Of a DNA stretch of 64,000 bases, positions 2,092 through 6,600 are shown piece by piece. Under the pieces are notes generated by a model that was not told the origin of the DNA, made no database searches, and saw only the letters and a list, made by a program, of their open reading frames with translations. The number at the start of each line of letters is the position of its first letter. Within the stretch, counting starts at the first letter, position 1. Made by a program: the position numbers and the translations under genes. Origin of the DNA: a virus (Duplodnaviria > Caudoviricetes); the IMG/VR virus record IMGVR_UViG_3300044655_001017; one strand, 5' to 3'.

Positions 2092-2306
2092 GCTACTTGC
2101 TCCTGTGTTGTAAGTAAAAATATATTATAGCAAACTGTTATTGATGTGTAAAGAGTTTATACGCTCTTTTCGTTGAGTATTTAGCGCGTGTTGTGTTGTG
2201 TATAGTGTAGCATTAAACACAAAAATACCCGCGTTAAAACGCAGGTATCCTATGCTTTTTTTTGGAGTTTTTTGTTGTATGCTATGTTTTACACAGCATT
2301 GTAAGA

Positions 2307-2458
2307 GGTACTTGAGGCCGGACTCGAACCGTGCGTCTCCCCGGGCATGCAGGGCAGTTTGATTGTACCTGACTATATCGCGATTATAGTGTTAACAGCA
2401 CAATGGTTACTGGGTGCGTGCAAATAGCACCAACTCTAGCCAACTGAGTTACTCAAGT
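2307..2458 (-). ncRNA. tRNA-like RNA with a large internal insertion (152 nt)
   Basis: Acceptor ACTTGAG/CTCAAGT, D arm ACTC-AGTTGGCTA-GAGT, T loop TTCGAGT; two anticodon-like arms separated by about 58 nt. Confidence 0.6.
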
Positions 2459-2514
2459 ATAATTTGTGAACTAACGCCTCACGGTTTGATAAATAACATG
2501 AGGGAAATAAAAAT

Positions 2515-3210
2515 ATGAAATTATGTAAAGAATGTTCAACACCTGTTACAAAACGAGATAATATATTTTGTAACCGATCCTGTGCCGCAAAGTATAACAA
2601 CCGTTCAAAAGATTATTCAACATTTAAATCAGGACCACAAACATTAGAATCAAAATTAAAAACATCGTTGGTTAGACGTGCTATCAATAAACAGAAACGT
2701 TCATTAACAGGACCATCAAAAAATTATCTATATGTCACTTCACAAACTGCAATCAAAGAGGCCATTGCTAATAATATACCATACACTAAAGTTTATCTAT
2801 GTAACTGCAAAAAGACAAACATTACTTGGTATTCAACTTCATGGAAATGTGTACATCCTTCTGTAATACAATCAAAAAGTGAATATAGATATCAATGTCG
2901 TTTTAACTTTTCATTATCTCAATTTAAAGATTGGTTTGATTACTCATCTACACTAATTGAAACATATGGTTGGTATTCTGCATCCAACAAACATAATAAT
3001 CTATCCGGATGCTCTCGAGACCATATGTACTCAGTTAGTGATGGATATGCAAACAATGTCAGTCCTGCTATTATTTCACATCCTGCTAATTGCGAAATAA
3101 AACCACATCGTTTAAATCAATCAAAACATTCAATCTCCTCTATTACCTTAGAGGAGTTACATACTCGTATTGCCAAATTTGATAAACAATACGCTAATTG
3201 GAGGAACTAG
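2515..3210 (+). CDS. HNH homing endonuclease inserted in the tRNA cluster
   Basis: N-terminal Cys-rich CKEC...CNRSC; C-terminal SRDH...HPANC...NQSK HNH-like core; opposite strand to flanking tRNAs; late promoter ATAAATA at 2489-2495. Confidence 0.75.
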   Translation: MKLCKECSTPVTKRDNIFCNRSCAAKYNNRSKDYSTFKSGPQTLESKLKTSLVRRAINKQKRSLTGPSKNYLYVTSQTAIKEAIANNIPYTKVYLCNCKKTNITWYSTSWKCVHPSVIQSKSEYRYQCRFNFSLSQFKDWFDYSSTLIETYGWYSASNKHNNLSGCSRDHMYSVSDGYANNVSPAIISHPANCEIKPHRLNQSKHSISSITLEELHTRIAKFDKQYANWRN

Positions 3211-3273
3211 CCGAAGTTGCATCGGCACCGCAAGGTTTTGCAGACCTGCATACTGCTGTTATACTATAGTTCC
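3199..3273 (-). tRNA. tRNA-Cys(GCA)
   Basis: GGAACTA/TAGTTCC acceptor, CTGCAAA anticodon loop, encoded CCA; atypical T loop TGCAACT and D loop without GG. Confidence 0.8.
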
Positions 3274-3317
3274 ATTAAAAATGGCATGTCGCTGCCGACG
3301 ACATATAAAATGTATTA

Positions 3318-3393
3318 GGGGTGACTAGTGGGACTTGAACCCACAAAATCTCGAATCACAATCGAGGACGTCTACCAATTCCGTCATAGTCAC
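3318..3393 (-). tRNA. tRNA-His(GTG)
   Basis: GTGACTA/TAGTCAC acceptor, CTCGA-TTGTGAT-TCGAG anticodon arm, TTCAAGT T loop; ends CCT, so CCA not fully encoded. Confidence 0.92.
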
Positions 3394-3507: not shown

Positions 3508-3648
3508 ACAGAATGTTCTAAAATAATCTTTGTAATCTATTTAGTTTTAAAAATAATGACGCCTACTTGATTAGAGTAGTTTAAAAGATGCAGTTCAATT
3601 CAATCAGGTATCACCTGCACTGCACCCTTACGTCATTTGTACTACTTT

Positions 3649-6600
3649 TTAGAAAGGTTGATCTTCTGTATCAACTTCTTCTTCAGCAACTGCATCTTCA
3701 TATACAGTTGGAGGAACAAGCCCTACTGACTCATACAAGTCAGTTAAGTCAACTGGAGTCTCTACAAGATCCTCAACTACCTCAGCTACTGCTTTTTTAA
3801 CTTTGGGCTCTTTAGGAGCTTTAGCTGGTTTTGGTGGCTTAGGAGATTTAGCTGATAAGAAGTCATCAAACGCTCGTTGTGCATCAATGTCCTCGTACTC
3901 TGCTAAGTCCTTAATAGCCTCAATTGCTTGTGCTTTTGTCATCGCAGACCCTAACTCCATTAAGCGGATGTCTGTGTGATGATTTTGCACTAATGTTTTC
4001 ACACGATCAATGTTGTTAGCAAAGCGAGCCTTGTACTCACCTTTTAAGCAAGATACCCCTGCAACAGTAAATGTTTTTTCCGCAGTTGTAGTAGCAGGAA
4101 CTGTAGATTCAATAGTTGTAGTCATTTTGTACACTCCTAAATAAAATTAAAAAAGTAAAGCAATTTAAAAAAACATATTATAGCAAATTAAAACTGACTT
4201 GTAAAGAACTATTTACATCAGCTACCCCAACAAATAGTTGTTACAGGGTCATCGCTAACAAATTCAAACTCTGTGTCAAACCCAAGTTCTTCATAATGAC
4301 GATCGATGTTTTCTATAACATAGTCTAATATTTCTTGTGTCTGTGCTTCAACGTACACTGTATCTTTACCTTTAGTGTGCCGCCATACGCCAACATGGTG
4401 AACAACATCAACTTCACCGGATGTGTGGCCGTTTTCAGCTTTTAGTTTAATTACTCCGTTTATACGAGCAATCACAGACTCTGTTAGTTTCTCTATCATA
4501 ATAGCTTGAACCTCGCGGCCGAGTTCGATTGCTTGTATTGCAGTAAGTTCATTTAACATATTACGCTCCGCAGTTTGTGTAAGTAAAAACATATTATAGC
4601 AAACTTATTTTGGTGTTGCAAGTAGTAATTACTTCACTATTACTCTCCTAGTTTAAGTTCGTTATCATAGTCGTCATACCAACAGGTGTTACTGCTGTAT
4701 GGAGTATCCTTGGCTGGTATGATTAGGTCTTGCCAATCTCTACTGCCTTCTGTCGGAACGGTTACGCTTGCATCAGCAGGAAGAGTTTGTAGGTATTCAA
4801 TTAGTTGGGCCACAGTTGTCATATCGCGCTCCTAGTGTGTTAAGTTGTGCATAGTATCACAAACTATGCGCAGGTAATTACATCTCAACCCATCCAAATG
4901 AGTCACATAAGTAATCAGTACCATCAACTTCTACTACATCGCCCACTGACACTGAACGATGTCTTCCATAAAATCTATTACGATCTTCTTCGCGACTTGG
5001 ATTGTTAGTTAAGTCAAACGCCTCTTCAGCTGCTTCAATGCCAGCTTCAGTCAATGTGATTGGGTAGTGTTGAGTGTATAATGGCAACCAGGCTTTAGCA
5101 TACTTAACTTTATTTTCCGCAAAGTAGAGTTCTGCGAGTAGTTTAGTTGGGGCAAGTTTAATAATAACTTTTGACATTGTGCGCTCCGCATTGCTTGTTA
5201 GTAAGCGCATAGTATAACAAACTATGCGCTGGTTTGCAAGTGATTTTTAATTAGTAATAGAACCGTCTCGTGCAATCTGTATCTTTAAAACGTTCTTCGT
5301 AATCATCCGGAACACCATGCGTTGTGCCCGGTATATTGCGTATTCCTGGACGTACACCTTCTGGGCAATCAACACTAAACAAGTAATTGAATCCTCTGTA
5401 ATTACCTGAGTCATGTAATACACGTTCAATCATTAAAATGATGCCATTGCGCCATGGTTCGTTGCCATGATCTGCTTTGAGCATTTCATTTGCATAGAGT
5501 CTTAATTCCTCTACGTTTACTGTTTTTCTTGACTTTGGCATAGTGCGCTCCGCATTGCTTGTTAGTAAGCGCATAGTATAACAAACTATGCGCTGAATTG
5601 CAACTGTTTATTAATCGCAACGTTTCCGAGCACTCTGTTTACAAAGTCTTGAGCGTCTTCGTCTACTTTTGTCAAGATGTAGCCGGAGCCGTCAACTAAG
5701 TCTATATAACATACTTGAGCGTTGATGCCTGCAATTTTTAATGCTTCATTCATCTTGCTAAAAGCATACTCTGCACCGGCTGTAAAGGCGTCTATCTCTT
5801 CTTCTGTTACGTCTTCATAGCCGTAAACTGCCATGTCTTCTTCAACAGTTTCAAAGTCATATACAATTGACTTGTTGATTTCATCCCAGACTGCACGATC
5901 CTCTGGATCAAAGTAATCGCCATCGCTAAGATCAAGTTCAGGGAAGTTATAAGTAGTAGACATTTTGTAAGCTCCGTAATTGTTTAACTAAAAACATATT
6001 ATAGCAAAGTGCTTGCTGGATTGCAAGTGATTTTTAAATCTTATTTCAAAATTGTTTTGAGATTATCAAAGTCAATATCTCTAAATCGAATTGCGTATTG
6101 ATCGTGAGTTTCTTCATTGTAGCAATAGACCATTTCTTCATCAAATGGTACTGCTTCAATAATACACCAATCACCATTTATCTTAGCTTTGGCTGCGGCT
6201 TGCAATAGTTGTCTAAGTTCTTTATTCTTGTTAACCAACCCTTGAAAGTGTTCTTTGTGAATGTTAAGTGGCATACTATTCGTCCTCTTCGTTGTCGTCT
6301 TCATCTTCATCTGGAGGTAAGTCAGCTAATGTTAGCACACCCTCTGAATACCAATCATACATCCAACTGTATTGTTGCTGTTTGATAAACAACTTAGCAG
6401 CTTCAGGTGAATCAAATATTCCACAGCTACGATCACCTTCGCCGGAACCATCATTGTAGTAAACTGGAAAAACTTTCATGCTATCTCCTCTAACATCATC
6501 TCAACTTCTTCTGCGTAAGCGTTTGGACGCTCTTCTTTCAACTCGTTACATCTTGGACATTCTTGTATAGCAACGTGATGTATCCAGTTAGTTAATTCGC

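Follow-up and report, generated by a model that had tools for sequence, protein, structure and literature searches.

The stretch of DNA analyzed in this work (the window) comprises 64,000 nucleotides (nt) of the virus record IMGVR_UViG_3300044655_001017 (Duplodnaviria; Caudoviricetes) and represents part of a large freshwater phage genome, whose sequence was found in lake-water metagenomes and whose near-identical neighbour loci sit on contigs of 358-372 kilobases (kb). The sequencing runs listed with this DNA include no RNA run, which has no bearing on expression. Along with many short genes without known function, the window encodes ribonucleotide reductase, tail and endolysin domains, as well as a minus-strand transfer RNA (tRNA) operon whose final gene (2307-2458) specifies the tRNA-like RNA of 152 nt that is the subject of this work. 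The operon runs from a strong promoter-like site (4205-4177) through a gene of 161 amino acids (aa), tRNA-Met, tRNA-His and tRNA-Cys with an antisense 231-aa gene, and the 152-nt RNA, to a terminator-like hairpin (2251-2222); the fact that these two sites bracket the cluster supports its co-transcription as an operon. The RNA gene is present in a single copy within the window and is not an assembly artefact, since a contig from an independent lake run covers positions 2249-3343 with zero letter differences. The same independent runs also contain a second variant of the RNA.

The arms of the RNA follow one another in the order acceptor, D arm, an anticodon-derived arm A, a long arm B, a short arm C and T arm (Table 1), and the minimum-energy fold of the window's variant is this six-arm cloverleaf with one bulged base in the T arm. 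Arms B and C make up an insert of 74 nt, to which the 4 nt of the variable region are added. The loop of arm A consists of UA plus a tRNA-Thr-like loop (it reads UA, then U-U-triplet-A-Y). A first-pass annotation had already recognized the acceptor ACTTGAG/CTCAAGT, the D and T arms, the AGAC and the arms of both loops, all of which lie on the minus strand where it placed them. Some of its details required amendment: the hairpin ACTATA/TATAGT noticed within some 58 nt is present, but the whole segment forms one long stem with internal loops; the T arm described as normal does have a canonical T loop, but the bulge in its stem had been missed; and, of the two arms described as anticodon-like, arm A alone is anticodon-derived, the 6-nt loop of arm C being without U33 and carrying the complement of arm A.

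Table 1. Elements of the 152-nt RNA and sites at the two ends of its operon (positions in the window).
Feature	Position	Strand	Remarks
Whole tRNA-like RNA gene	2307..2458	-	149 nt from acceptor to acceptor, plus discriminator A and CC; last A of CCA not encoded
Acceptor stem, 5' strand ACTTGAG	2452..2458	-	A1, C2, no G3:U70; 7/7 pairs kept in all rows, 2 compensatory
Acceptor stem, 3' strand CTCAAGT	2310..2316	-	Conserved pairing in the alignment
Discriminator and CC (reads A-C-C)	2309-2307	-	Follows the acceptor 3' strand
D arm, canonical (A14, G18, G19)	2433..2449	-	97.9% paired, 1 compensatory pair; 4-bp D stem
Arm A, anticodon-derived, 5 bp, 9-nt loop (10 in some relatives)	2413..2431	-	100% paired, 3/5 pairs compensatory
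Anticodon-equivalent triplet, UGC in the window	2420..2422	-	UGU, GGU, AGU, GAU in relatives
Arm B, 58 nt, three helices and two internal loops	2355..2412	-	Helices 87.5%, 96.9% and 100% paired; 4 compensatory pairs
Arm B tip, 6-bp hairpin ACTATA/TATAGT, loop A-N-CGCGA	2372..2390	-	Identical in 11/12 rows; resembles the tmRNA resume motif
Arm C, 5-bp hairpin, 6-nt loop	2339..2354	-	100% paired; 1 compensatory and 1 one-sided change
Codon-like triplet in loop C, GCC in the window	2344..2346	-	ACC, AUC in relatives; predicted pairing with arm A
Variable loop AGAC	2335-2338	-	Between arm C and T arm
T arm, canonical T loop, one-base stem bulge (A2332)	2317..2334	-	Bulge in 6/12 rows
Sigma-70-type promoter-like site	4177..4205	-	11/12 consensus letters, extended -10; upstream of the 161-aa gene and tRNA cluster; consensus match only
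Intrinsic-terminator-like hairpin	2222..2251	-	Operon end, directly after the RNA; consensus match only

Syntenic loci were gathered via the flanking proteins, and a covariance model was then used to search for further copies. The RNA is present on 29 contigs beyond the window, all from related freshwater jumbo phages; many of them derive from the same populations and were reduced to 12 alignment rows with 11 distinct RNAs (63-100% identity). It was found in every syntenic locus whose contig spans the site, and the covariance model recovered a 65%-identical copy, relocated and again embedded in a tRNA cluster, in a complete 372-kb relative and in a 172-kb fragment. At the syntenic site tRNA-His, tRNA-Cys, tRNA-Trp and HNH-type genes vary (tRNA-His occurs only in the window, L090, L096 and L099, and tRNA-Cys is absent in L086, L099 and L113), the RNA being as constant as tRNA-Met. 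The comparison of gene content thus shows that the RNA gene is kept despite the turnover of tRNA and endonuclease genes around it. The scenario of homologs that are ordinary tRNAs, with a random insertion in this copy, which the first-pass annotation had named as fatal to its own idea, does not apply: the insert is conserved, and no insert-free version was found. Outside this group, no copy was detected in 46 other viral records, and a blastn search with two variants against 50,697 cultured-phage records returned short D-arm or T-arm matches only. Pattern scans of metagenome and GTDB contigs gave unrelated coding DNA, absence there not being established, and a D-arm scan gave ordinary tRNAs. 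From these limited scans the family looks narrow. The suggested check with Rfam and ARAGORN left the RNA without a match (Rfam at E up to 1-2) or a call (ARAGORN at default settings), and with relaxed scores ARAGORN calls an intron-tRNA whose identity is Thr, Ala, Phe, Val or Asn depending on the homolog. We found no published description of the RNA, a catalogue of 10,006 virus RNA motifs (PMC10690425) lying outside the comparison.

Covariation among homologs, another check proposed at the outset, was counted on a model-fitted alignment of the 12 related rows, and the counts overstate the number of independent events. Over this alignment 96.7% of the cells are paired, and compensatory (two-sided) changes affect 14 of the 44 pairs; shuffles give 6.5 +/- 1.4 such pairs, slid controls 0-2. 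They fall in seven of the eight helices, i.e., acceptor, D stem, arm A, two helices of arm B, arm C and T stem. An independent RNAalifold analysis of the plain alignment gave the same set of helices, apart from the arm B base. The tertiary pair 15:48 is G-C in five rows and A-U in seven, and hence standard in all of them, as expected if the L shape of tRNA is kept. This pattern of substitutions shows selection acting on the cloverleaf core, on the 15:48 pair, on arms A, B and C and on the arm B tip, and we are highly confident that the RNA is a functional tRNA-shaped molecule. All helices, the loops of the D and T arms and the 15:48 pair have been retained among relatives, in agreement with the tRNA mimic that figured among the initial proposals. 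A further, alternative pairing is possible between the D loop and an internal loop of arm B (alignment columns 15-20 with 65-70, window ~2439-2444 with 2391-2396); it shows one compensatory change and would compete with the tRNA elbow.

The most peculiar trait of the alignment concerns loops A and C. Across the rows the triplet of arm A reads UGC, UGU, GGU, AGU or GAU, positions 4-6 of loop C read GCC, ACC or AUC, and the codon in loop C matches the anticodon of arm A (same amino acid, third-place wobble) in 11 of the 12 rows, the twelfth being a G-U variant. The two core pairs are standard in every row, with C-G replaced by U-A in the window's clade and G-C replaced by A-U in L127, the most distant copy. 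When 315 loop-loop registers between unpaired segments were compared, six kept at least three pairs in all rows, and arm A with arm C was the sole register with two compensatory columns; similarly, the only stacked covarying doublet among 470 variable column pairs joins these two arms. The equivalents of U33 and A37 are invariant, even where A37 cannot pair. The TGC previously noticed in both loops is true of the window and is not conserved among relatives, whereas the complementarity is; it represents the loop complementarity as seen in one variant. We therefore regard it as likely, judging from these sequences, that loop A pairs with loop C, capping the anticodon with a matching codon, and the evolution of the anticodon appears to be coupled to that of a codon elsewhere in the same molecule.

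The triplets imply Ala, Thr and Ile, so that the likeness of the window's loop to that of tRNA-Ala does not hold as an identity. A triplet spanning three amino acids on a near-constant acceptor, together with a loop of 9-10 nt, argues against decoding, and the RNA is very likely a non-decoding one. With canonical and class II tRNAs (RF00005), the nearest of which is tRNA-Thr(UGU), it shares the 7-bp acceptor, the D and T arms, the tertiary core with G18-G19 and 15:48, and a similar loop consensus in arm A. It differs from them in its loop, which is not the 7-nt anticodon loop with a conserved anticodon but a longer one showing five triplets, and in its two extra arms, which take the variable region far from the usual 4-24 nt or so; RF00005 gave no match at E up to 1-2. 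The best ordinary-tRNA matches of both covariance models are tRNA-Thr(UGU), most rows carry Thr triplets, and C2-G71, a threonine identity pair, is invariant. For these reasons the probable ancestor of the RNA is a tRNA-Thr(UGU) gene that acquired two arms at the variable position. The complete 372-kb relative carries its own normal tRNA-Thr(UGU).

What might such a molecule do? We suggest, with a confidence evenly balanced between acceptance and doubt, that it is a non-decoding tRNA mimic kept for a purpose and serving as a decoy or scaffold for a host factor that handles or senses tRNAs; the decoy or scaffold step, taken alone, we rate as slightly short of an even chance. The RNA would be co-transcribed with the tRNA cluster and matured in a tRNA-like manner (RNase P, 3' trimming, CCA completion), becoming stable. 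Arm C would fold back along arm A, and the pairing of loop C with the former anticodon (3-5 bp) would prevent the reading of mRNA, while a host protein that binds or senses tRNAs might take the exposed elbow and acceptor for those of a tRNA, and a sequence-specific contact might be provided by the conserved arm B tip. In this way the RNA could tie up, during infection, a host factor acting on tRNA, such as an anti-phage tRNA nuclease, a stress sensor or a translation factor. Several observations weigh against this proposal. A stacked covarying doublet is expected by chance 0.22 times anywhere and 0.01 times within these two loops, and the pairing of the loops rests on three changes (two compensatory, one G-U) along a tree with few well-supported branches, which is why we hold that pairing to be likely and go no further; moreover, the pair on the wobble side is standard in only 4 of the 12 rows. 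In nine of the rows the proposed fold lies 1.1-4.6 kcal/mol above the minimum-energy fold, and a competing pairing of D loop and arm B, with 4-6 mostly G-U pairs, is also possible. Finally, for anticodon nucleases in particular an anticodon that is masked makes a poor bait, and no partner protein was identified for the RNA.

Different explanations have to be compared with the decoy or scaffold. A decayed tRNA duplication or a neutral insertion would be in agreement with a folding energy that, taken alone, stays within the chance range and is no better than that of shuffles (z -0.96), but the decayed duplication that the first-pass annotation had envisaged is refuted by the compensatory changes, which span the helices including those of the insert, and the RNA has been kept after relocation in a distant relative; we give this explanation hardly any credit. 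It is also very improbable that the gene encodes a tRNA with a short intron, to be spliced to a normal tRNA. Lak megaphages carry oversized conserved tRNA genes with short introns (10.1101/356790), so that such inserts do exist in very large phages, relatives of the window possess RNA ligase genes, and relaxed-score ARAGORN reports an intron. The identities it reports disagree among homologs, however, the insert covaries with the anticodon loop without being part of it, and no single excision in any row gives a canonical anticodon arm (at least 4/5 stem pairs, a 7-nt loop, U33 and R37), which largely rules out an intron-containing tRNA and, with it, the processed precursor initially suggested. 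For the Lak genes intron-free versions are known and excision gives a tRNA, whereas neither an insert-free version nor a valid excision was found here. Phage tRNA genes whose anticodon loop harbours, as in the Lak tRNA-Thr intron, a second nested piece that is tRNA-like or bears a T arm were observed at L045:3660-3797 (-), L026:8152-8295 (+) and L039:6502-6659 (+), and other oversized tRNA-shaped genes with unrelated inserts at L005:1663-1869 (-), L032:2650-2775 (+) and in L003 (207, 126 and 130 nt). An unusual working tRNA, with a giant variable region and an expanded loop (a frameshift suppressor or a misacylated species), perhaps charged by a stand-alone GlyRS-like domain of the phage, would fit the canonical acceptor, D and T arms, a discriminator that is mostly A across rows and the maintenance of the U33 and A37 equivalents; in the complete relative, the RNA is followed, some 280 nt downstream, by a gene for the core of a class II synthetase (218 aa). 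We nevertheless find it unlikely, considering that the triplet shifts among three amino acids while the acceptor barely changes, that the loop is expanded, the insert large and the T stem bulged in half of the rows, and that 28 other loci and 20 viral records contain the synthetase-like gene but not the RNA, the gene sitting beside tRNA-Gly in one of them. An obligate link between the two genes is ruled out by this wide distribution, many such records being fragments. The stand-alone core itself (L125:11026-11682 (-)) is GlyRS-like, without an anticodon-binding domain; many of its 431 homologs are 65-90% identical, and jumbo phages of Caulobacter and Brevundimonas also carry such genes.

Two further explanations start from the insert. 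Pseudoknot I of dicistrovirus internal ribosome entry sites mimics the decoded A-site duplex, and the message ring of transfer-messenger RNA (tmRNA) is far longer than 74 nt. The RNA might be a self-decoding ribosome ligand, whose anticodon-codon helix formed in cis would mimic such a duplex, so that the RNA could enter ribosomes that are stalled or empty with no need of SmpB and either rescue or park them, the arm B tip motif being a possible point of resumption. This is improbable in our opinion, and a little more so is its fullest form, a natural self-decoding tRNA with its own cognate codon that would occupy the decoding centre of ribosomes whose A site holds no mRNA, be a protein-free counterpart of tmRNA-SmpB and perhaps resume at that tip. 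In its favour, loop C reads as a codon cognate to the triplet in 11 of the 12 rows, the U33 and A37 equivalents are invariant, no SmpB was found in the complete 372-kb relative, where a Pth2 gene lies near the RNA, and the frame-setting motif of tmRNA, U85-A86-R-N-Y-GC (PMC2481249), is matched at the arm B tip (as U85-A86-R-N-Y-GCN) in all 12 rows, the sole loop change hitting the N position. On the other hand, the motif was noticed post hoc, lies within a hairpin under selection and also turns up when inserts are shuffled, in about 1% of them under strict and 7% under relaxed matching. It is followed by Ala-Ile-stop in 11 of the 12 rows, but in L127 a change that leaves the hairpin intact removes the stop, which argues that the helix and not the stop codon is under selection; no frame is closed in all rows, and an Ala-Ile-stop mini-tag is ruled out as not conserved. 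Although the RNA shares with tmRNA (RF00023) tRNA-like ends around an insert bearing a resume-like motif and an Ala codon, it differs in having a D stem (with a compensatory change) and no G3:U70 (it has U3-A70 or C3-G70), as correctly seen in the first-pass annotation, in lacking a conserved tag or stop and a pseudoknot ring, and in its size, the insert falling far below that of a message ring. The complete relative, moreover, already has a two-piece (permuted) tmRNA of its own, with an unusually long tag (L182:1172-1593 (-)). Two other roles of the tip were discarded: that of a third anticodon (CGC), the equivalent of U33 being A in L127, and that of a -10 promoter box, given that it has no matching -35 and is not called by the promoter scan. 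Alternatively, the tRNA frame might be a mere stable carrier, the active part being arm B, as a guide or regulatory RNA or through a tip that oligomerises; its target would be either a second RNA or a protein of the phage, for instance the RNA-repair platform DUF2828 (Ro60/TROVE-like). We judge this idea, the next in rank after the decoy or scaffold, to be rather doubtful. Conservation within the insert peaks at the 19-nt tip, whose loop holds a self-complementary CGCG, DUF2828 and RNA ligase genes lie within about 5 kb of the RNA in the complete relative, and, according to PMC7824862, TROVE proteins of jumbo phages act together with a tRNA-like partner. Nonetheless, the 6-nt palindrome of the tip shrinks to 4 nt in the distant copy, no target was identified, and a separate YrlA-like RNA about 180 nt upstream in the complete relative represents a better TROVE partner. 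In the 64-kb window, tblastn detected no DUF2828 gene. YrlA is characterized by a T arm preceding the D arm, a closed acceptor loop and a GNCGAA motif (PMC4201824); the likeness of our RNA to YrlA (RF02553) is limited to a tRNA-like domain and to its occurrence in phages with Ro60-like genes, whereas it has the normal tRNA order, open ends, no 5' GNCGAA and no RF02553 match. The YrlA-like RNA mentioned above (L122:1833-1940 (-)) gives a weak RF02553 match of 26.9 bits, below the family cut-off, and lies in the tRNA cluster of a DUF2828-carrying phage; short modules with a CAGCA motif, similar to it, occur between tRNAs in L190.

The operon harbours other elements worth reporting. A second conserved structured RNA, of about 80 nt, is located between the 161-aa gene and tRNA-Met (3555-3637 (-)) and consists of two hairpins, one long and one short, and a closing stem in which a compensatory change occurs; it has no Rfam match, is also found at L061:2978-3057 and in L090, L099 and L113, and keeps its site in a relative whose tRNA cluster has moved. 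The 231-aa gene antisense to the tRNA operon (2515-3210 (+)) corresponds to phrog_23051, whose product has a Cys-rich N terminus and, by eye, an HNH-like C-terminal motif, with no Pfam or PDB match; in relatives it is missing or swapped for other HNH/NUMOD3 genes, and the tRNA order around its site is rearranged. The tRNA-Cys(GCA) gene (3202-3273 (-)) has non-canonical D and T loops, is detected by Rfam and missed by default ARAGORN, and exists as several diverged alleles among relatives.

As far as sequences and predicted folds can tell, the closest known kind is that of the tRNA-like stable RNAs of phages T4 and T5, which are not homologous to the one described here. T5 RNA1 (144 nt) and RNA2 (125 nt) are annotated in NC_005859 as 'tRNA-like stable RNA with unknown functions', and T4 RNA C and RNA D (species 1 and 2) are stable RNAs at the end of the phage tRNA operon, with unknown function (PMC9697503). 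These RNAs have been known for decades and are still without an assigned function; the family reported here offers handles for testing, namely, a core with tRNA geometry, an anticodon-codon coupling and a short invariant tip. Annotation programs miss such genes or mislabel them as intron tRNAs of five amino acids. If the pairing of loops A and C is true, it shows how a tRNA gene can turn into a non-coding mimic by masking of its anticodon, and, if the RNA engages ribosomes or tRNA-targeting defences, it would represent a new RNA-based tool of phages against their host. Like T5 RNA1 and RNA2, which are of similar size, it has tRNA-like ends and non-canonical arms and lies inside a phage tRNA cluster, and its succession of long arm, hairpin and T arm recurs in T4 RNA C. 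The covariance model gave no match to T5 RNA1/RNA2 or T4 RNA C/D at E up to 1 with filters off; T4 RNA C and RNA D differ in sequence, and the predicted fold of RNA C is without a D arm. T5 RNA1 is predicted to fold into acceptor, D arm, a long interrupted arm, a short hairpin and T arm, without a separate anticodon-derived arm A and hence without an anticodon-codon lock of the same form. In these predicted structures, it is the extra anticodon-derived arm that sets the RNA described here apart from the T4/T5 kind.
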